In this document: positions 10,252 through 29,067 of the stretch, piece after piece
Position numbering within the stretch: the first letter of the stretch is position 1
How the letters are laid out: each line of letters opens with the position of its first letter
NCBI GenBank assembly: GCA_016906335.1
Contig: JADEYG010000007.1
Coordinates: forward strand, 372,001 to 436,000
Direction of reading: 5' to 3'
Origin: Novakomyces olei
Lineage: Eukaryota
DNA: 64,000 bases
Program-made: the position numbers and the translations under genes
Notes under the pieces: generated by a model
Databases searched by the model: none
What the model saw: the letters and a program-made list of their open reading frames with translations, nothing else
Told to the model about the DNA's origin: nothing

Positions 10252-10482
10252 TCTCGCATTTCGTTGATTTAACTGTACGGCAATTCTGTGCCCAAAACCT
10301 GCGGTTCGTTTCTCTTTTCTGCGTATCGGCAGTTCAACAAATCAGCACGTGCGCCCGACAAGGAAAGCGCCAGGTTTGTTGTTTCGTTACTCGTTTTTGA
10401 TTTCCACTCGGCCTTTTCACCCGTATTTTCTCAAGGCCATATAAGTGGCCGTAGCGGCCACTAACGAATTAAAGCGTCAATA

Positions 10483-13400
10483 ATGCCTCTTGACGCTGAT
10501 GACGAGCGGCTTGTTAATTGTCCTTATACTCGATGCAAACTCCGTGATGCTTTACCGGAACACATGCATCTTACAAGTCGGCGGCTATTTATCGGACCCA
10601 AACCGGCAAACTGGCAGACTCCGCTCAGCTCGGGTCATAATGCGTGGCTTCGGAAATGGCAGAGCAGGCGTAAAGGCGCTAATAAACAGTTTGAGTTCCA
10701 GGCAGTCGCTGATACCGGCAACGTATATATTGATTCTATGAATGGATCAAGTTCGTCACAGATCTCCAACGGCTCTACTCTGCGGACATTGAGTGGGCCT
10801 TCTTCGCCGCATTCAGACTCGGATAGCTTTTCATTTCACAGCCATGACGAAGGTCAGTCAAGCGACTATAGCAATCCGAGTCTTTCCGATCAGTCAGTAA
10901 TGTCGGAAGACTTACGGGAGCTCGATCCTGAGACAGGGCTGCCGGTAGACCCGCCGGCTCCGTCAGTGTCTTCCTCCTCGTATTTAAATAGGACGGCTGA
11001 GGTGATAGACGGTAGGGGGACACTAAACAGTGCTGGCGATAGTGTGGATGATTTGCAGGCAGATGACAAGAGCTTTACCCTGTCCGATGGGCTTAATAGC
11101 AGAATAATGGACACGGCGACCGATACTTCCACAACGTCTTTTGAGACTGCACGCAATACAATCGACGGGGAATCCTCTGCGTCGCTGGACGATACAGAAT
11201 CCCCTGACGGGTCTGCTAGCGGGTTTGATACAGTATCCCAAAATTCGCAGGCGACTGCTACTTTTGTGGACTTGGCATTGAATAAAAAAGATGGACTATC
11301 AAACGATGACATTCAGGGCCCACAGCTTTCAGAGACGGTTTCCTTACAAGGCAAGATGGCAGAGCCCTTGCCTGCCCCCAACGGCCCAATGCAGGTGCCA
11401 CAAAACAGTTTGCCTATGAATAACCTATGGGCAAAAACATCAACTGTGTCCGATCGCTCCAAAGCTAAAACGTTGAGCAAATCGGAATCGAAGCCCGGCA
11501 AGTATTCGCCTGCAAGCAAAGCTGAAGGAGGAACGATTTTGCGTCAGAGATCTCGAACTGTCAGGTTCCATGACGGATCCAAATCACGGAAATCCCTGAG
11601 GGATGAAGGTCTTCGGCGGGTCCACTTACCGCATCTTCGAGTACTCGCCAGACGTGCACAAAAGCACCCAGGCCGTATTGTGTATGCGCAACGTATGCTG
11701 GCCCGGTTTGAGGCCACAAAGTCGCCGGATATGCCTAAAAATTTTGATGAGACTAACGCTTACTGGGTAAAACGTAACGTTATGCAGGACTGGAGGGAGT
11801 ATGTTGTAGTGGCACGACTGGGCCATACGACTACGGAGCCGCTGGTGCTTTATTTTCATCGTAATAGGCGCATCGGACGAACAGACACGCACCCCAAGAG
11901 TCGGCATTATGCCTCCAAGTTTGTCTTGAGTGTTACAAACTGTGATGTAAACCTGTTCTCCACGCTTGACAAGACGATTGCTCTGTGGAAGCGGACTGCT
12001 AAAGGTCACAATATCATTATTCTGCGGCCCAAAGGTACGGCTAAATCCGTGAGATGGTTTGGCATGCTACAGAAAGCATTGGGACGCAAAGAGCCGAGGA
12101 ATCTAGTTATCACTGTACCGGATCTCGATGTTGTAGTGCAGCTTACATTTAACCACGGGCAGTCGTCGTCGACGGACGAGCACGACAACAAGGAAGAGGA
12201 CTTTGAGCTGACAGATTCCGGTGTTGTCAAGTTAAAAGGCCATGCAATCACGGAAAAGTATATAATAAACGCCTGCATGCTGGCACTTGGCGGAGTAGCC
12301 GAATGGAATGACGTCCTTTTACGCTGGCGGACAGGTCGTCTAGGGCTTTGCTGGCGTAAATTTGACCGGCTAGAATGGATCTACGATGACCAGAGCGAGC
12401 GGCTAGTTGCGCAATGGACTCTAGTGAAAACTCATTACCTTGAACTCAGGCCAAAAGTGCATTACCCGGACAAAATTAATAACCCTTTACCGGCAGCTGG
12501 AATTGCAACTGCCAATGCAGCTGGCCCAACTGGCCCAACTGGCCCAACTGGACCAGCAACGGGGTCCACTTTTCCGGGCCGGCAAAAAGAAGCTTTCTCG
12601 GAACCTCTACCAGTAGAAGGGTTCCTGCTCAAGCTAACGAATGGCCAGGGCGACATATACTCAATACTGGGAAAGGCGTATGTAAAACGATTGTACCTCT
12701 CAACGCACGACCACCTCCTCTTCTTCATCAAACCCAAACGCGCTCACGCTCCAGACCCGTCGAATGACGTAGTCGAGCTTTGCCATCGGATCTGGCAGCG
12801 TAACGAGCTGTCGCGTGCAGCGACAAGCGAGACACAGTCGACGGCAGCGCCGGCCACTGTGGATTTCGAGGCAATTGCTGACAGAATGTCTAATGAGCGC
12901 GTATTGCCCACAATTTTCCCTATTGAACCGTACAAACTAACGGCGGACGGACAAGAGTTTGAGTGGTTATCAGCGTCAGCGTTTACCTCGCAATCGTGTT
13001 CACAGTCCATAAGGTCCCTGCACGACAGTTTTGCCGAGGCTGAGAGCGAAAGGAAGCTGGCCCAGATATCTGGATCAGAAGGTTTCATCGATCTTACACA
13101 GGTCGTGTCTGTTCAGCCGCTGGACGCACGAGAGGAAAGGGCCGATAGCGAATCGGTAGCAATGTCGTTTAACTCGTCTACTGCTGCCAGCAATAATAAT
13201 GGCAGCAGCAATATCAATAGCGCTGGCCAGTGCCAAAGGCACTTGTTTGTCCTGCACCTTGACAATGGCCGAAGGGTTATTCTCGGAGCCCACAACTCGA
13301 GGACTCTGCGTGAGTGGGTGCAGCGGCTGTCCGACCTGGTCGAGTACTGGAAAGTTCGGCTCCGTCGGGACGTAGTGGAGTCTATGCAGGTCCGTGAGTA

Positions 13401-14142
13401 CAACCGGGAACGGCTGCATATTGAGAGCGACGACTGTGGTGGAGGTGGATTTGCACTTGAAGGAGGGGCGGCAGAACAGAAATGGGCCTGGAGACAGTGT
13501 ATGGCAGACACGGCACTTTACAACTGCTGCGTAATTTCACGCTGCCGGACAATAGCAATGAAGGGGTTCTTGTTTGAGAAGAAGCATCGACTGGGCACTT
13601 TTACCCTAAACTATGGAGTCCTCACGCACAAGCAGCTTGTGCTGTATGAGATTTACGATAGAAATGTGCTCGGTACTCCCCGACCAAGTCTCTACCGTCG
13701 CAGACGCCGTACCATCCAGCTGCGTGACAGCTACCTGCTCACTGGACCAGCTGTGGCTGATATGATCCATACAGGCAGGACGAATGCCTTTGACGTGGAT
13801 GCTCCAGGCCACCACTCGATTCCAAGGATCTATGCCGACGGGACTACGTCGTGGGAAGAAGATGAAACACTGGGGATCGTTATTTGGACAGGCAGACGAA
13901 AGGCAGTTCTGGCAGAGACTGATCGTGCTGCTCCTGATCCTGGTGCACACACTAGTGCGCACTCTGGCAGCGGCAAACGAGGCCGTCAGCATCTACAGTC
14001 GATGGCCAAGCTTGGTGTTGTGGGTAAAAGTACTATACTAATGGCCCGGTCTCGTCAGGAGCGGGATATGTGGGCGTTTTCTATGGGGATTTGCATTGAG
14101 CGGCTCTCTGACAACGATATGATTTCCTTCGTGGACGAGTAG
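10483..14142 (+). CDS. SPO71: Sporulation PH-domain protein Spo71/Mug56
   Basis: 1219 aa. N-terminal TSRRLFIGP, then WREYVVVAR, FSTLDKTIALW, LCWRKFDRLEWI, THYLELRPKVHYP and ARSRQERDMW. Confidence 0.85.
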   Translation: MPLDADDERLVNCPYTRCKLRDALPEHMHLTSRRLFIGPKPANWQTPLSSGHNAWLRKWQSRRKGANKQFEFQAVADTGNVYIDSMNGSSSSQISNGSTLRTLSGPSSPHSDSDSFSFHSHDEGQSSDYSNPSLSDQSVMSEDLRELDPETGLPVDPPAPSVSSSSYLNRTAEVIDGRGTLNSAGDSVDDLQADDKSFTLSDGLNSRIMDTATDTSTTSFETARNTIDGESSASLDDTESPDGSASGFDTVSQNSQATATFVDLALNKKDGLSNDDIQGPQLSETVSLQGKMAEPLPAPNGPMQVPQNSLPMNNLWAKTSTVSDRSKAKTLSKSESKPGKYSPASKAEGGTILRQRSRTVRFHDGSKSRKSLRDEGLRRVHLPHLRVLARRAQKHPGRIVYAQRMLARFEATKSPDMPKNFDETNAYWVKRNVMQDWREYVVVARLGHTTTEPLVLYFHRNRRIGRTDTHPKSRHYASKFVLSVTNCDVNLFSTLDKTIALWKRTAKGHNIIILRPKGTAKSVRWFGMLQKALGRKEPRNLVITVPDLDVVVQLTFNHGQSSSTDEHDNKEEDFELTDSGVVKLKGHAITEKYIINACMLALGGVAEWNDVLLRWRTGRLGLCWRKFDRLEWIYDDQSERLVAQWTLVKTHYLELRPKVHYPDKINNPLPAAGIATANAAGPTGPTGPTGPATGSTFPGRQKEAFSEPLPVEGFLLKLTNGQGDIYSILGKAYVKRLYLSTHDHLLFFIKPKRAHAPDPSNDVVELCHRIWQRNELSRAATSETQSTAAPATVDFEAIADRMSNERVLPTIFPIEPYKLTADGQEFEWLSASAFTSQSCSQSIRSLHDSFAEAESERKLAQISGSEGFIDLTQVVSVQPLDAREERADSESVAMSFNSSTAASNNNGSSNINSAGQCQRHLFVLHLDNGRRVILGAHNSRTLREWVQRLSDLVEYWKVRLRRDVVESMQVREYNRERLHIESDDCGGGGFALEGGAAEQKWAWRQCMADTALYNCCVISRCRTIAMKGFLFEKKHRLGTFTLNYGVLTHKQLVLYEIYDRNVLGTPRPSLYRRRRRTIQLRDSYLLTGPAVADMIHTGRTNAFDVDAPGHHSIPRIYADGTTSWEEDETLGIVIWTGRRKAVLAETDRAAPDPGAHTSAHSGSGKRGRQHLQSMAKLGVVGKSTILMARSRQERDMWAFSMGICIERLSDNDMISFVDE

Positions 14143-21997: not shown

Positions 21998-23759
21998 TTG
22001 AGTGGAATCGGCTCGTGCCATAATAACTAGTACTAGTATAATTGCACAGCGCGGTTTAGCGACTGTATTTGTCTTTGTAGCAGTCGGCTACCCATTATTA
22101 AGCAACACTAGTGGTAAATCTATTAGAACTGGTTACAAGTCTGTGCTCAGTGGATGGATCAATGAATAAACCAGAAAAGCACGACTTGGGATTAAAATTA
22201 TCAGGATCACTGGTAATTTTAAGTAAAGATGAATTAAACGGTGATCAAGGTTTAACCTCAACCTGAAGCAGACTTGAACTGTTGGCACTTTGTAGAGTTT
22301 TGTCGCCCATTTGGGGCCATCGGCCATCGGCCAACGGCCAAAGCCAGCAACAGCGCTATAACCCGGAACGATTTGCATCCAACAATCATAGACAGTCTGT
22401 TGGTAGCTTTACGCTCAGAGAGAAGATTACGCACTCATTCAAGGCAGACTAATCTCCGTGTCGTGATATTTGCATTAAACAATCTATCCTCATCATTGCG
22501 CGCCGAGTATGGCAATTAATTACAATTATTGAACATTTTTCCAGTGGTGGCCTAAACACTGATTGCTCGTGAACAAACGGATTTGCACAAGTAATGTATA
22601 GAAGAGTAAACCGTAATTTGTATAGGAAAATCAAACAAATGGACAAAGCAATGCAGTACTGCCATAATAATGCACATAATAATGCACTACTGACAAGTAA
22701 TCCATGAGAGCGAAGATTCAAAAGACAATTTAACGCAAACAACACAATCACTAAAAATACTGAAAAAATTAAAGTAATTGTAATTGTAATCGGCGTGCAG
22801 GTACGCGCACAACTTGAGTATACGGCAAAAGCGTTAAACGCGATCGGCAAGAGGGAGAAATGCCCAAGCCACTGTTTAACCTATAACCCACATTCTTTCA
22901 CGTGTCCCGTGGCCCTAATATAAAAATCGGGAATTTTTTTGCTCTTGATTATAGGCGCTGAATTAGCGCACTATCCGTGTAGGTGGCAGCCTGTCAGCCA
23001 TTTGCACACACTGATCACCCAGTGACGTGAATACATGTATACCCAGACTCTAATTTGTAAATATGAAATCCTTAATACTCTCACGCCGCGCCTTTGCAAG
23101 TCACGACCGTCAGTTCTTGACCGTTCGTTCCTTTTCTTTCCTTATATGGAGCTGGTTAAATAAGGAAGAAAGTACGATATTGGACCTACGAATCCCAAAC
23201 TTTGCACGCCATCCATCCATTGTATAGAATATGGTATTTTTAGCAGTGCGAATGTGCTTTAATCCTCTATTTCAGTGATATTTTAGGCCTTTTCACGCCA
23301 TACTGCCGCGATTAGTCCACAAAAAGGTGCCGCGAATAAGGCACAAGTAACCAACCCGCGAGCGGTCAATATTTCCGGTAAATAACTGTGTCTATTATAC
23401 TAAATCAATGTACGATATATTCCTACGCAGATCGGCATACCGGTAAGCAATCGTCGCTTGCCAGGGGCGAACAAGTAAATATGCCCACGCGTCAGCGCGT
23501 CCACGCTCGCCATTAAGCGACGCGCGTTTCGTATAAATAAGCAAAGGCATAAATAAACATGCACATCAACCCAAACACTCTCCCACGCTTCACACTCTTT
23601 ACCGTCGCTCTTTACTCACGAACAAGCTTCGTCCTTGTTCGTCCTTGTCAGTCGTTGTCTCGTGTCACAACTGCCGACTTTTATCTCTATATTGCCCAGA
23701 CTGACGCTTAAAACGATAAAGTGCAATACAATTTAAACAAACAAGCCGCACAGAAAAGA

Positions 23760-24647
23760 ATGCTTTCGTCTATTGCCCTCGTCGTAGCGGCAGCGGCCGT
23801 GGCTAATGCACAAAGCACAACGCCTACAAGAACAACAGAGACCGAACTGCCTTATGCGCCGATTAATACTCAGGCTGCCTCTGCTTCGGCCTATGCTACG
23901 CTCCCCTTTGCCGGCACAGACACAGACATCAATGCCCGCTTTGATTTCCAGTCGCTTGCAAACGGCACTGTGCGCATTGGCCTTACTCTCTCTGACCTGC
24001 CGAGCAATCTCTCCTCTATCGGCTACTCTATCAACCAGCACGGAGTCCCCTCTGACGGCGACTGCTACCTGACAGGTCCCCGTCTCGATCCCGTATGGCG
24101 CGGGCAGACACCCGACTGCGATATGAGCGACCCGGGCTCTTGCCAGGTCGGAGACCTTTCTGGCAAGCACGGTAACGTGTCCGAGAGCAGTCTTACGGGC
24201 CGTAATACCTTTAGCACCGGCTATCTCGACCGCTACCTTTCCCTGAGCCGTGAATCAGCCTCGTTTATTGGCAACAGATCTATTGTCCTGTGGGAGGGCA
24301 ACAATACACGCATTGCCTGTACCAATATCACAATTGTCAGCTACGGAGAGCCGTCTAACTTTACTCTGCCGGCTTCTTCTTCCCGGCCAGCAGCTACTCA
24401 CACTGCCTCCGTAGGCGGAACTAACGGCTCTTCTTCAGGACACAATGGCACTCGTGTAACCGGCACTGGCACCAGTACTGGAACCAGTACTGGCATCAGT
24501 GCAAGCAGTACTGGAGGCAGTAGCGGAACCTCACCAGCCTCTGCGCCAGCCTCGTCTAGCAGCAGCGAAAGCGCCGCCAGTGTACTGTCTTTGTCTCTCT
24601 CATCTCTGGTCCTCGCTGTCGTTGCAGCCACTTTAGCGTTTGCTTAG
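23760..24647 (+). CDS. GPI-anchored Sod5-like (Cu/Zn SOD fold) cell-surface protein, metal ligands lost
   Basis: Signal peptide, CQVGDLSGKHG, YLSL...FIGNRSIV...TRIACTNI, S/T-rich stalk and hydrophobic GPI signal. Confidence 0.85.
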   Translation: MLSSIALVVAAAAVANAQSTTPTRTTETELPYAPINTQAASASAYATLPFAGTDTDINARFDFQSLANGTVRIGLTLSDLPSNLSSIGYSINQHGVPSDGDCYLTGPRLDPVWRGQTPDCDMSDPGSCQVGDLSGKHGNVSESSLTGRNTFSTGYLDRYLSLSRESASFIGNRSIVLWEGNNTRIACTNITIVSYGEPSNFTLPASSSRPAATHTASVGGTNGSSSGHNGTRVTGTGTSTGTSTGISASSTGGSSGTSPASAPASSSSSESAASVLSLSLSSLVLAVVAATLAFA

Positions 24648-24978: not shown

Positions 24979-27062
24979 TCATTTCTGCTCCAGTTCAAGC
25001 GACAAGACGAGCGGTGTATCTGTCTGCACGTCCACTTCCAAGTACCGCTGCGGTTGAGCAAACTGGTTGCACGAAGAAACGAGGCCAGTGAATGATAATT
25101 CGGAAACGTGCTCATTCAAATTCCACCGTGCTCCTCGTGTAACTGCCCTGGTCGGCCCGTAAATAGGTAACAGTCCAAAATGCCGTCCAACAGAAACGTG
25201 CTTGTTCTCAGCTGCCACAGGTAGCTGTGGCTGAGGCACATTCGCAGCGTCGACGACCGTCTTTGCTCGCCCAGGGCAGAGCAATAGAAGGTTATCCTTG
25301 TCACAGGCTATCAGCTTGTACCGCGGATGTGTCTTGTACCAGGCGTACATCTGCGCCAGGGCACCAGCAGTATGATCAAAACGGCCGCCTACTGCCCCAC
25401 AAACAAGAACTTGCCAGGGCGGCAGTTCTTTTTTATGGCCCTGCTCACGCTCACATACAATCGCGTCCAGCAAGTTTAATGCCTTTGTGAAATCAGTCGA
25501 GTACTGGTCAGTGTCGGGGACTATACGGGCGCCTTTGCCTTCGTAATACGAAACAATATTCAAACAGACAGAGTCCATGTCCCCCGTTACACCATCAGGG
25601 ATCAGTGCTGGATCCATTGCGTTCAGCCAGTTGGCTCCGCCATCTGCGCAAATGCGTATACTCGCATTCGCCCATAGATCACGTACGACATTATGAGGGA
25701 AAGGCAGCCGCTGGTTAAGGAATACAATAGCCATATTGTCTACTTTGGCCCTTGAAAATAGACGCATTGGCTCAATAAGTGGCTCCGGGGACAATGTCCG
25801 GTCTGCGCTTTGCTCCTGCCCATGTTTCTCTTGCCCATAGTTCTCTTTGACCGAAACTTTATCAGAGTCAGCTCGGCTAGTAACGGAACTGCCTATAGGA
25901 AATTCCATTTGCCGGTGGATGCGCCGACAAAGTTCAAGGTAATCGGGCTCGTTTTCCTGTGTCAAGATGCCATGACGGATGAAAAAGTCGAGTAAAACAA
26001 GTACAGTATTTGGTTTGAATTCACCGGCATGAATGTGCTCGATTACCTGTTGAACCGTCATCAACTTGAACTCGGCCACTTCTGTATCGTGCGGACGTGG
26101 CACAATACTCGTGTGAAGTGGGAGGTCATACACATATTGAATCTAAATTTAGAGGAAGAAGGAAAAAGGGAAGAAAGAAAAGAAGAGAAAAACCAAAACT
26201 AGGGAAGACGAAAAGAAATTGATCAAGACAAACCTTACGAATAAAAGTAAAGGAAAACTAATTGAACAAAAAGAATTGACTCAAAAAAAAGCCTGTGAAT
26301 GACAAATAGCAACCCAGAAGAAATTGGTGTAATTATGTGTAAAAATAAAAATGGTCCTAGTGATCATATGTAAAATAAAATAAGTAGTATAAAGACTTAC
26401 TTCCGGCTGAAGAAGACCAGACTCTCCACCACTAGCGGCTCCGCTCTCCGTATAGTAACCAACAGATCCAGTCTCTTGGACGTTTCGGGAAACGAACTCC
26501 TCTTCGAGACTCGCTTCTTCTCCGGCTTCCTTGATGATTGTGTCCCGTGGCGAAAACCCGTAGCCAATCCCGCCAGCTACGGAATTGTCGAGCATATTGG
26601 GAAACGTTTGTTTTGTTGATGATCTTCTAGGCACCCAGATTTGTAGAGGGCGGGCAGCAAAAGCCGGGACATAGGCTGTCATGTGAACTCCATAAGTCTG
26701 CACGCCAAATAACGGAGTTGCTGCCCGTTCCATATGGAAACAAATTGAAGTTTGCGAATCGTAAACGGGATACTCCTCGTCTCTCCAGCCTTTTAATATG
26801 TTAAACTGCTCATCCGCCCGCCATTTTTGCAAAACCGAAGCAATAGCTGTGCTTCGAGCCTCGCAATCGGCTGCTATTAGCTCAGGTGTGAAGGTTATTA
26901 TACGGAGCTTTGCATCAACCGACCAGACTTTGGGATGCTGCCCAATAACTTTAGAAACTTTTATAGGAATATGTCCCAATGTGCGGCCCTCAAATTGAAA
27001 ACGAAACATTTGTTTCATCATAATCCTGTAACCCCGAGTACCATGGTAGGGGACACAATCGC
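24979..27062 (-). CDS. tnr3: Nudix hydrolase (YJR142W-like) + thiamine pyrophosphokinase (Tnr3-type fusion); probably the C-terminal part of a Trm11 fusion
   Basis: Nudix: ERAATPLFGVQTYGVH, MLDNSVAGG...KEAGEEASL. Intron 26143-26400 gives LQPE-IQYVYDL, then GEFKPN. An open linker leads into TPK motifs ICADGGAN, GDMDSV, DQYSTDFTKAL, GGRFDH and SSCN. Confidence 0.9.
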
Positions 27063-27220
27063 CTATATACATATTAGATATTCACCATCTTTCATCTGAT
27101 TTATCATTTGTATTATTCTACTATTGATTATTTTAAACGAGCTTGTTTTTTGTTTTTTTTTGTTGCTTTCTTTTATTTCAATGTATCTCTTTTTAAAATT
27201 AAATCGAAACGTTATCATAC

Positions 27221-29067
27221 ACAAATTAACGCAGTCGAGAAAAGAAGCTCTTTTCGGCTGGGAAGAAGAAGGAGATCCGTAAGGCTGTGCTGTGAATACT
27301 TTTTCACGGAAACGTGAAAGCGTCAGCCCGTCTGCCTGTAGAGAATGCTCAACTTTGCCTTTGTTCTCTAATGGCTCTGTAGTCTTTTCGTAAACCAATA
27401 AAATTCGCGACCCTAAATTGGAATTAGTTAAGAACACATAGAATAATAGAGAGGAACAATCGAGTTGAGTAGAATTGCGTGAAAGCTTCAAAAATCCAAA
27501 GTAAATACATTTCCCAAACTGCTGGACTCCATGGGTGACATGACGCAAACATGAGTGAGATGGAATCTCGTCCAGCTTGAAATCCTCAGTTATAAATGGC
27601 ATCCAATATACAAGACGCCCGCCACGTTTAAGTCGTTGAGCAGCAAACTCCATAAGGTCGCCTATGACATCTGGGAGCTCGTAAAACTTTGTTGGCGGAT
27701 AGTAGTCAGGAGACCTTGAAAGCAATTAGATAATGAGAAAAGATACTTATCATACTCGTGAGCAAAAGTTCCAAAGCTTTCCATAAAAACGGGCCCTCTT
27801 TTTTGTTTGCTCGGATCACGACGTCCTAGAGTCTTGGCGCCTGCTCGTACGCCATAGGGAGCTATCATGTTAGACTGGCTATACTAGACTCCTTGATGAG
27901 AAACTTACGGTCTGTTACGATTGCATCCAAGCCAAGATCCTTGCGTAAAGGGCAGTGCTTTATATCCGCGGTAAAAAGACCCACAAGTCGGTCTTGTAAG
28001 CCATACTGATCCATGTTTGTTTGGACAGAGCCCCTTGACGGCTTTCCACGGAACTGGCGGCCATCAATATCAGAACCTATGGTATTAGCTTGCATGAATA
28101 ATCACCCAGGGAAACATGGCTCGACGAGCCAATTGCGACATAAAGTTCACGAAATTCCGGCCTAGCAAAAAAGTCTTCTACAAACAAAACCGAACATTGC
28201 AAAGACAATCAAGCATCTTCAATTTGTATAATGAAAAGATTGAATAGAAGAAGAGTACCAATAACAGACGCGCCAAAATAGGCACAAGTGTACAAAAAGC
28301 TGCCGGTGCCCGTAAACGGATCATACAAAAGTTTTCCAGGCGCACTCAATGCTAGTCGCGCAGTCACTAGCGAAAGCTCGGCCTCAAACGTGGTAGTCCC
28401 CCTGTATCCGCGTTTCTTTACATCAAAAAGGTCGGCCACATGCGTTGATCCGACGCACAACTATACATGAGAATCGAACAAGAAAATGTTCCACATACTC
28501 TTCTGCCTAGATAAGCCCTTTGAAGTACGTGGCTGTCATCGTGCTCCAACATGACCGCAAAACGCTGCTCCGGGTTTTGCATAACGATAGGTCCGCTAAA
28601 GCCCATAAACGCGAGCGATTCATATAATTCGCGGCGTTCCTCTGGCGATATACTGCGTTTGAACGATTGAACATCAAGGCGGAATGAGGCTTCCGAGTAT
28701 TGTCCCTTAACTTTTTTAGCATTTTAATGGTGGATCTTCATACAAACAAAGGTTTGGAATCGCGCAAGACGCTCTCACGCAATTCCGGCAAATCGTGAGC
28801 CTGCCCCCATAGTTCGTAAACGGCAAAAGTGCTCACAGACTGTGAGCACACTTTTACGGCAGCCTCGGCGTTGGAGAATCCGACAATCCAGAACGGCGAC
28901 TTTATTTTGTTAGCTCTTATCAGCAAATTGGACGCCTAGTTATGGTATACATCGTTCCGGTACTCGTGCACATCAATGCCAACTGAGATAGTATCAGCGA
29001 TTGCCTGTAATTCAAGTGCTCGAAACTCGGGATTCCGTAACGGTTGGTGGACGAGGAATCGTTCCAT
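27221..29067 (-). CDS. TRM11: tRNA m2G10 methyltransferase catalytic subunit; reading frame continues into Nudix-TPK
   Basis: Multi-exon. MERFLVH...EFRALEL, KRGYRGTTTFEAELSLV, YDPFTGTGSF, GSDIDGRQ, TDPPYGVRAG (across a splice), GGRLVYW, WSRIL, FREKVF. Confidence 0.92.

Follow-up and report, generated by a model that had tools for sequence, protein, structure and literature searches.

A continuous reading frame of Trm11-like, Nudix and thiamine pyrophosphokinase parts in Novakomyces olei

The window analysed here is a stretch of 64,000 nucleotides from Novakomyces olei (contig JADEYG010000007.1, positions 372,001 to 436,000 of the forward strand). On its minus strand, from position 29067 to 24979, ten exons with GT-AG borders chain into one reading frame of 3180 nt and 1059 codons, which begins with a Trm11-like tRNA methyltransferase part and continues into a Nudix hydrolase and a thiamine pyrophosphokinase (TPK). 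The terminal TGA (24979–24981) is the only stop codon of the chained frame. The fused open reading frame (ORF) is real in the DNA. Established at the level of the sequence are the open frame, its splice signals, the homology of the motif at the junction between the methyltransferase and the Nudix part, and the identity of the Nudix and TPK parts. An earlier sequence-only reading of this DNA had predicted a continuous frame of more than 1000 amino acids, and the 1059 codons agree with that prediction as far as the frame is concerned.

Exon-intron structure of the locus

The exons, and the introns with particular features, are the following, in the order of the predicted transcript:

Exon 1, 28951–29067, minus strand: 39 codons beginning with ATG 29067–29065; N-terminal part of the Trm11-like protein
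Intron 1, between exons 1 and 2, minus strand: 51 nt; GTATAC...CTAAC...AAG
Exon 2, 28744–28899, minus strand: 52 codons; Trm11-like N-terminal domain
Intron 2, between exons 2 and 3, minus strand: 38 nt; GTATGA donor
Exon 3, 28499–28705, minus strand: 69 codons; Trm11-like N-terminal domain
Exon 4, 28259–28460, minus strand: beginning of the class I methyltransferase domain, with S-adenosylmethionine (SAM) motif I, DPFTGTGS (residues 207–214)
Intron 4, 28077–28258, minus strand: 182 nt, versus 38–96 nt in the other Trm11 introns; unusual GTACTC donor
Exon 5, 27909–28076, minus strand: SDIDG (residues 229–233) and the first residue of DPPY, a motif split by intron 5
Exon 6, 27756–27861, minus strand: rest of DPPY (residues 283–286; amino-methyltransferase motif IV)
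Intron 6, 3' of exon 6, minus strand: donor GTATGATA, an 8-mer identical to the donor of intron 8
Exon 7, 27509–27714, minus strand: late methyltransferase domain; M340 and M357 are the last in-frame Met residues before the Nudix part
Intron 7, 27413–27508, minus strand: 96 nt, a multiple of three, with no in-frame stop; atypical donor GTATTT
Exon 8 (fusion exon), 27221–27412, minus strand: end of the methyltransferase up to FREKVF (residue 427), 16-residue linker (residues 428–443) and SFLDCVNL (residues 444–451)
Intron 8, 27063–27220, minus strand: 158 nt; donor GTATGATA, CTAAT 15 nt from the 3' end, TAG acceptor at 27065–27063
Exon 9, 26401–27062, minus strand: CDCVPY..., DUF4743 and the beginning of the Nudix domain, including its Nudix box (residues 615–637)
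Intron 9, 26143–26400, minus strand: 258 nt; GTAAGT...TAG; 29% G+C
Exon 10, 24979–26142, minus strand: end of the Nudix domain, spacer, TPK catalytic and B1-binding domains, stop codon TGA 24979–24981

The introns of this gene are short, with GT-AG borders and a CTAAY branch site close to the acceptor. In 5' to 3' order the nine of them measure 51, 38, 38, 182, 47, 41, 96, 158 and 258 nt. All nine donors open with GTA, three of them with GTATGA, and a match to the CTAAY-type branch (script pattern) lies 10–19 nt before the acceptor in eight of the nine. The G+C content amounts to 45–53% in the exons versus 22–38% in the introns, with the minimum in intron 8 (22%). The join across intron 9, LLQPE/IQYVYDL, agrees with the homologues (LLQPEVQYVYDL and similar). 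No RNA family was matched by the locus (Rfam, E up to 1) or by the whole window (Rfam gathering thresholds and a tRNA scan), so that no small nucleolar RNA or other RNA gene accounts for the long introns 4, 8 and 9.

Exons 7 and 8, with intron 7 between them and intron 8 behind, form a single ORF of 220 codons (27063–27725). Retention of intron 7 would add 32 residues to the protein and would not truncate it.

The junction in exon 8 and intron 8

Exon 8 is an unbroken stretch of 192 nt, stop-free in frame 0 and with no ATG in any of the three frames. Its translation reads ...WSRILLVYEK...LSRFREKVF, continues with TAQPYGSPSSSQPKRA and SFLDCVNL and then runs into the donor GTATGATA. The observation of the sequence-only reading that neither a stop nor a Met follows SRFREKVF, the frame passing through this linker into SFLDCVNL, is thus borne out. 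Removal of intron 8 joins T/GC into a Cys codon and gives the peptide SFLDCVNL-CDCVPYHG. Donor 27220, the CTAAT branch, the TAG acceptor at 27063 and the T/GC join had all been proposed before, and this splice is now supported by homology.

The homology was drawn from a search with the Nudix exon among proteins of 386–2000 residues, which gave 155 matches; signature counts refer to the 120 of these that were listed. In 81 of the 120 homologues, an N-terminal signature S/T-x-L-D-L-[IV]-N-E-C-D-x-F-P-Y (regular expression) is found shortly before DUF4743. Its counterpart in the window is SFLDCVNL-CDCVPY, split by intron 8. A position matrix was built for the eight residues upstream of the CDxFPY anchor, which was present in 90 of the 120 homologues and yielded 42 unique 8-mers. 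SFLDCVNL scored 8.8 bits with this matrix, a score equalled by six of the 91,429 stop-free 8-mers in the six-frame translation of the window, SFLDCVNL itself included. When all GT-AG pairs 30–400 nt apart within 27412–26980 were scanned, the pair 27220/27063 was the only one out of 176 that rebuilt the 14-residue motif (19.2 bits versus -3.8 bits for the next best). As the sequence-only reading had stated, it is the Trm11 frame that encodes the N-terminal end typical of this Nudix family.

In a MAFFT alignment, KRAS-FLDCVNLCDCV-PYHG was placed with APKS-FLDLVNDCDSF-PH (P0068) and PPYS-FFDIVDKCDTY-PY (P0112). The N-terminal ELLDECDSF of the fission yeast protein Tnr3 was aligned as well, in a less exact residue register than the former two. 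The distance of 15 nt between CTAAT and the acceptor of intron 8 is within the range of the other introns (10–19 nt). A Nudix-TPK gene very probably once had intron 8 as its first intron, and the remnant of its first exon would be the end of exon 8.

If intron 8 were retained, 52 further codons would follow, encoding a Lys-rich tail that stops at TAG 27065–27063, the acceptor itself. Since intron 8 has the lowest G+C content of the locus, this read-through tail does not look coding. The TAG overlaps a Nudix-frame ATG at 27072–27070 (ATGTATATAG).

Upstream of SFLDCVNL, the nearest in-frame Met residues are M357 and M340 in exon 7, followed by M310 and earlier ones. The only ATGs within 27520–27221 are located at 27510 and 27439, both out of frame. 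Translation from ATG 27439 stops after three codons, and ATG 27510, which overlaps the donor of intron 7, is followed by about 28 codons up to a stop (read by eye). A start of Nudix-TPK inside intron 7 or exon 8 was considered and is ruled out by the frame and the early stops of these two ATGs. Translation of SFLDCVNL from an AUG would be possible only from the methyltransferase frame. Stops in frames 1 and 2 near the end of exon 8 are found at 27217/27214 and 27228. One erroneous indel in exon 8 would therefore give the methyltransferase a stop codon and still leave the first Nudix exon without a start. A genuine fused ORF is ranked first because SFLDCVNL can be reached from an AUG only via the methyltransferase frame and because a single indel does not restore two genes.

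The three enzyme parts and their relatives

For the upstream part (residues 1 to about 427), families were scored exon by exon on contiguous translations. Exon 4 matched PF01170 (UPF0020) below the threshold, with 21.3 bits (cut-off 22.3, E 2.5e-4) over 51 of 197 profile positions. The E-value against TIGR01177 was 0.002, and the archaeal Trm11 chains 6zxw and 6zxv in PDB were matched at E 0.86–0.92. The first Atlas match of this exon was a eukaryotic PF01170 cluster (0.92, 176 shared features); a cluster from Ascomycota with PF01170 and PF25904 (Tmrp11_N) scored 0.80 and exons 7–8 reached 0.88 at best, both of which are leads only. A PDB search with the single exons 5, 7 and 8 returned nothing useful, and its matches held no eukaryotic Trm11 chain.

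The stretches PEFR..EL, SPFWI and ELWG in exons 1–2, and SR.L...EK and FREK.F towards the C-terminus, are presumably typical of TRMT11. The yeast protein Trm11 is about 433 residues long and its human counterpart TRMT11 about 463, with the FREK-type motif near the C-terminus. TRMT11 ends roughly 20 residues past this motif; measured by such an ending, the 427-residue part would be essentially complete.

Of the methyltransferase motifs in the window, DPPY belongs to the class (D/N/S)PP(F/Y/W/H), which is named for Trm11 in excerpts of PMC5389515. The same excerpts give D238 as the acidic SAM-binding residue and D291 as part of motif IV in yeast Trm11, and the distance of about 52 residues between SDIDG and DPPY resembles the D238–D291 spacing. 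Compared with the enzyme described there, the layout of the upstream part fits a THUMP part that ends near residue 185 and a methyltransferase that begins near residue 190. In Trm11/TRMT11, the catalytic subunit of the Trm11-Trm112 tRNA m2G10 methyltransferase, the N-terminus is likewise non-catalytic and is followed by a methyltransferase of class I that has motif I and DPPY. The known Trm11 is a stand-alone protein, whereas the Trm11-like part in the window ends without a stop codon. With good confidence, short of proof by the search tools, the upstream part is assigned as Trm11-like.

Exon 9 matched PF15916 (DUF4743) with E 4.3e-21 and 75.6 bits (cut-off 25). The NUDIX model scored 18.8 bits on this exon, below its cut-off of 21.1, because intron 9 splits the domain. 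Both sides of the intron matched PDB entry 3dup (exon 9 with E 2.8e-21; residues 3–74 of exon 10 with E 1.7e-9), and the matches are collinear at chain positions 19–202 and 209–281, respectively. The Nudix box reads GGIGYGF...KEAGEE, compared to the consensus Gx5Ex7REUxEExGU.

Exon 10 is a single ORF of 387 codons, of which residues 1–85 match Nudix C-termini and residues 135–385 match TPK. Since the Nudix-TPK junction lies inside one exon, this fusion does not depend on any splicing assumption. It had been read before that the Nudix ORF continues via intron 26143–26400 into TPK without a stop, which is indeed the case, in a single frame with one exon 10. The TPK families PF04263 (E 5.5e-26, 91.2 bits, cut-off 30.7), PF04265 (E 5e-9, 36.1 bits, cut-off 22) and TIGR01378 (92.7 bits, cut-off 76.4) were all matched, and the mouse, human and yeast TPKs in PDB (1ig3, 3s4y and 1ig0) were found with E 1.6e-22 to 4.7e-21, the former value belonging to 1ig3. 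The TPK motifs CADGG (residues 837–841), GDMDS (859–863), STDF (887–890) and GGRFDH (924–929) are intact.

The closest known counterpart of the Nudix-TPK module is Tnr3 of Schizosaccharomyces pombe (UniProt P41888), named in the source 'thiamine diphosphokinase Tnr3/ Nudix hydrolase fusion protein', in which DUF4743-Nudix, TPK catalytic and TPK B1-binding domains follow in the same order. Tnr3 was the best match of exon 10 in a HMMER search of 1.84 billion representative proteins (2438 matches), and among the best 150 of these matches no other spanned both parts starting at query residue 1. With Tnr3, the spliced protein of the window could be aligned over 534 residues with an identity of 37.5% (E 2e-97). 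The K-E-x-x-E-E form of the Nudix box is common to both proteins, and the TPK motifs of Tnr3 (CADGG, GDFDS, TTDF and GGRVDH) correspond to those of the window. At the Gx5E position, Tnr3 has D and the window F. Tnr3 carries its N-terminal LLDECDSF about 16 residues from its own Met. It comprises 569 residues with a start codon of its own, whereas the module in the window is startless and lies in frame behind a methyltransferase of about 427 residues. The Tnr3-type Nudix-TPK fusion led to the assignment of a thiamine damage-control function to the Nudix part (Goyer et al. 2013, as cited in excerpts of PMC4921024, Table 4, and PMC5389931). Among the matches seen, the Nudix-TPK fusion was shared only with fission yeast. 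For the Nudix and TPK parts, even the best homologues were just 37–46% identical, and there is seemingly no sequenced close relative in the collections searched.

Stand-alone DUF4743-Nudix proteins (YJR142W of yeast, NUDT20/24 of Arabidopsis, and 3dup) combine PF15916 and Nudix as in the window. The Nudix part of the window shares 35–51% identity with the fungal homologues listed. Unlike the window protein, these stand-alone proteins carry neither TPK nor a methyltransferase. The same source ascribes oxy-/oxo-thiamine diphosphatase activity to the family (Goyer et al. 2013, as cited in excerpts of PMC4921024, Table 4, and PMC5389931). In two database gene models, other domains stand in front of DUF4743-Nudix, namely PIH1 in a protein of Funneliformis (P0112, 573 residues) and proteasome Rpn-type repeats in a protein labelled Persea americana (P0071, 1062 residues). 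These may be merged neighbours or further N-terminal fusions to the DUF4743-Nudix family.

Bacterial ThiI, which acts in tRNA s4U8 formation and thiazole synthesis, is a conceptual parallel only, as a THUMP protein in tRNA modification and thiamine metabolism. Catalytic domains and chemistry of ThiI are unrelated to those of the window protein, and there is no homology beyond THUMP, the role of which in ThiI is treated in excerpts of PMC5389515. A single sulfur-transfer activity supplies both pathways in ThiI, whereas three independent enzymes are concatenated in the window.

The architecture of Trm11, Nudix and TPK was searched for as a whole, and no other protein with it was found among the matches listed. 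This agrees with the statement of the sequence-only reading that it had not been described, within the limited reach of the protein and literature searches. With the Nudix exon, no PF01170 or TPK domain was found among the 120 matches listed (155 in total) in proteins of 386–2000 residues. The word index limits which candidates among the clustered proteins are scored; with the TPK exon none of 3147 candidates of 679–2000 residues gave a score, and with the last two Trm11 exons none of 387 candidates of 386–2000 residues did. In the HMMER search, no Trm11-Nudix-TPK protein was present among the best 150 of 2438 matches, six of which were scanned with Pfam. The only long match among these 150 (P0178, Coemansia, 1155 residues) combines Spo71-PH with TPK and was rejected as a different architecture. 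Exact look-up of 13 ORF proteins of the window among about 15 billion proteins returned none of them and thus no independent copy of the junction. The fusion was not found in the open-access literature searched. No paper combining Trm11 with thiamine pyrophosphokinase turned up there, and the listed titles and abstracts on Trm11 together with Nudix show no fusion. Of this architecture, the Nudix-TPK half was known before; the new element is Trm11.

Origin of the fused frame and alternative explanations

The locus is probably one minus-strand transcription unit, in which two tandem neighbours merged into a Trm11-Nudix-TPK frame of 1059 codons. One mRNA would be translated into one chain of about 118 kDa, with intron 8 presumably spliced in vivo and the full-length protein accumulating. 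Residues 1 to about 427 would form a Trm11-type tRNA guanine-N2 methyltransferase with a THUMP-like N-terminus, SAM motif I and DPPY, residues 428–443 a Ser/Pro-rich linker, and the remainder from residue 444 a Tnr3-type module of DUF4743-Nudix followed by TPK. The methyltransferase, if it is Trm11, would still work with Trm112, binding it and methylating G10 of tRNA. The Nudix part presumably hydrolyses damaged thiamine diphosphates, and the TPK part would synthesise thiamine diphosphate and would probably be dimeric, like the solved stand-alone TPKs. Most likely, the tandem neighbours came together by loss of the whole stretch separating the last TRM11 codons from the first ones of Nudix-TPK, and the first exon and the first intron (the present intron 8) of the Nudix gene would have survived the merger.

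A His tag at its C-terminus leaves yeast Trm11 active together with Trm112 (excerpts of PMC5389515). In the Nudix family, 43–122 residues precede the signature (60 homologue rows). As N-terminal extensions are tolerated in the family and tagged Trm11 is active, neither side of the junction is obviously harmed by the fusion. A neutral merger of neighbours, with no sign of chemical coupling, is the default reading; the three activities would reside on one chain without functional coupling.

Several observations weigh against a single trifunctional chain of this kind. When RNA sequencing runs were searched with the 4.6-kb locus, no run containing it was listed. Tool support for Trm11 comes from exon 4, below the Pfam cut-off, and exons 1–3 and 5–8, taken singly, gave no relevant family match in Pfam and NCBIfam at E up to 10. 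Within intron 8 there are AATAAA and long A runs, and the intron could act as a site of polyadenylation or retention. The in-frame ATG 27072 and Met 466–467 could start shorter Nudix-TPK proteins. In the Nudix box, the Gx5E position is occupied by F621 (approx. 26530–26532); E or D stands there in 119 of the 121 homologues, L in one and M in another. A metagenome scan gave four Nudix loci at 39–46% identity, which neither Trm11 nor TPK adjoined; with no relative of the same arrangement found, the junction is without evolutionary replication. Due to F621, the Nudix hydrolase may be weakened or altered. The earlier assessment that the catalytic motifs of all three enzymes are intact consequently stands for the methyltransferase and the TPK and is not fully true of the Nudix box, with its one non-conservative change at this near-invariant acidic position. 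K629, where 117 of 121 homologues have R, is shared with Tnr3.

Separate Trm11 and Nudix-TPK proteins might be the main products of the fused frame in the cell, which we consider rather unlikely, yet the most serious of the alternatives. A Trm11 isoform would then result from retention of intron 8 or from another acceptor inside it, and Nudix-TPK from an internal start at M340 or M357, at a near-cognate codon in exon 8, or in an upstream exon spliced to the CAG of the linker. The first half of this scheme is favoured by intron 8 itself, which is stop-free in frame, has its read-through stop exactly at the 3' splice site and harbours the AATAAA and A runs. However, Trm11 would lack a clean stop, and a Trm11-only product would carry SFLDCVNL and a junk tail from DNA with 22% G+C. 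For the second half, a pyrimidine run is followed by CAG at a codon boundary just before PKRASFLD, exons 1, 2 and 3 all end in phase 0, and exon 8 is free of ATG like an mRNA leader, a weak point with about three ATGs expected by chance in 192 nt. On the other hand, no CTAAY-like branch site was seen by eye before the internal CAG or before the AGs of intron 8, and an internal promoter within a coding exon is an extra assumption.

A working trifunctional enzyme with co-regulated or coupled parts is doubtful. Gene fusions serve as 'Rosetta stone' hints of functional links, and in one version of the coupled enzyme, splicing or retention of intron 8 would switch between the full chain and a Trm11-only product. 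If the parts were coupled, tRNA m2G10 methylation capacity would be tied to the supply of thiamine diphosphate, TPK dimerisation would give a two-headed Trm11, and the locus would be the second independent case, after ThiI, of a THUMP tRNA-modifying protein joined to thiamine metabolism.

An artefact or a dead locus, i.e. an assembly collapse, a sequence error, or a decaying duplicate with functional copies elsewhere, is very improbable. The unusual F621 and the exact look-up, with none of 13 window ORF proteins found among about 15 billion, would fit this explanation. Against it, the ten exons are open and the splice signals, the TPK motifs and the methyltransferase motifs are intact. A collapse would need to keep the frame and cleanly remove both a stop and an ATG, and two normal genes would not be restored by a single indel. 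Within the 64 kb, none of the parts has a paralogue.

Least probable of all is that the motif match is coincidental and two ordinary genes are present, with Trm11 ending at TAG 27065–27063, the 158 nt of intron 8 as its tail plus overlap, and Nudix-TPK starting at ATG 27072–27070 (MYIGDCVPY...) or at M466 (MMKQM...): the Nudix-frame ATG indeed lies 7 nt before the TAG, so that a gene finder could call overlapping ORFs, and the Pfam DUF4743 model begins about at the motif CD (residue 23 of homologue P0002 corresponds to profile position 17), but S-F-L-D-x-V-N stands directly before a consensus-like donor in the right phase for the conserved Cys, the 158 nt with 22% G+C are below all other introns and far below the exons, and a head-to-tail overlap leaves no space for a terminator and a promoter, where other spacers measure about 300 nt or more (ORF list, unscored).

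The fused frame is a clean and unusual case, yet it is found in one genome and has no evident functional logic. The architecture was not found among the matches listed from searches of about 5.8 billion clustered and 1.84 billion representative proteins. If expressed, the fused protein would extend the Nudix-TPK fusion beyond fission yeast and would mean that Trm11 tolerates a C-terminal load of 630 residues while still needing Trm112. It would also offer a natural test of a link between tRNA methylation and thiamine cofactor supply. As a neutral merger, the locus would be a clean example of a fusion in which the first exon and first intron of the downstream gene were kept and its start codon was lost. 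For gene finders it is a trap, inviting two overlapping ORF calls.

The surroundings of the fused frame look fungal, with Spo71-like, APSES/ankyrin, Set2, catalase, importin-like HEAT and Hsp70 proteins encoded in the window. The Spo71-like gene (10465–14139, plus strand), containing PH_SPO71, PH_4 and Spo7_2_N, is located about 11 kb from the TPK exon. The annotated Spo71-PH and TPK fusion of Coemansia (P0178) may reflect the merging of two gene models or hint at an old linkage of Spo71 and TPK. An ORF of 311 codons (23712–24647, plus strand) converges on the 3' end of the TPK part. Its product did not match any Pfam family at E 1e-5. With a hydrophobic N-terminus, a C-terminal third rich in Ser, Thr and Gly, and a hydrophobic tail, it looks secreted or anchored by glycosylphosphatidylinositol, and its middle part presumably resembles Cu-only superoxide dismutases.

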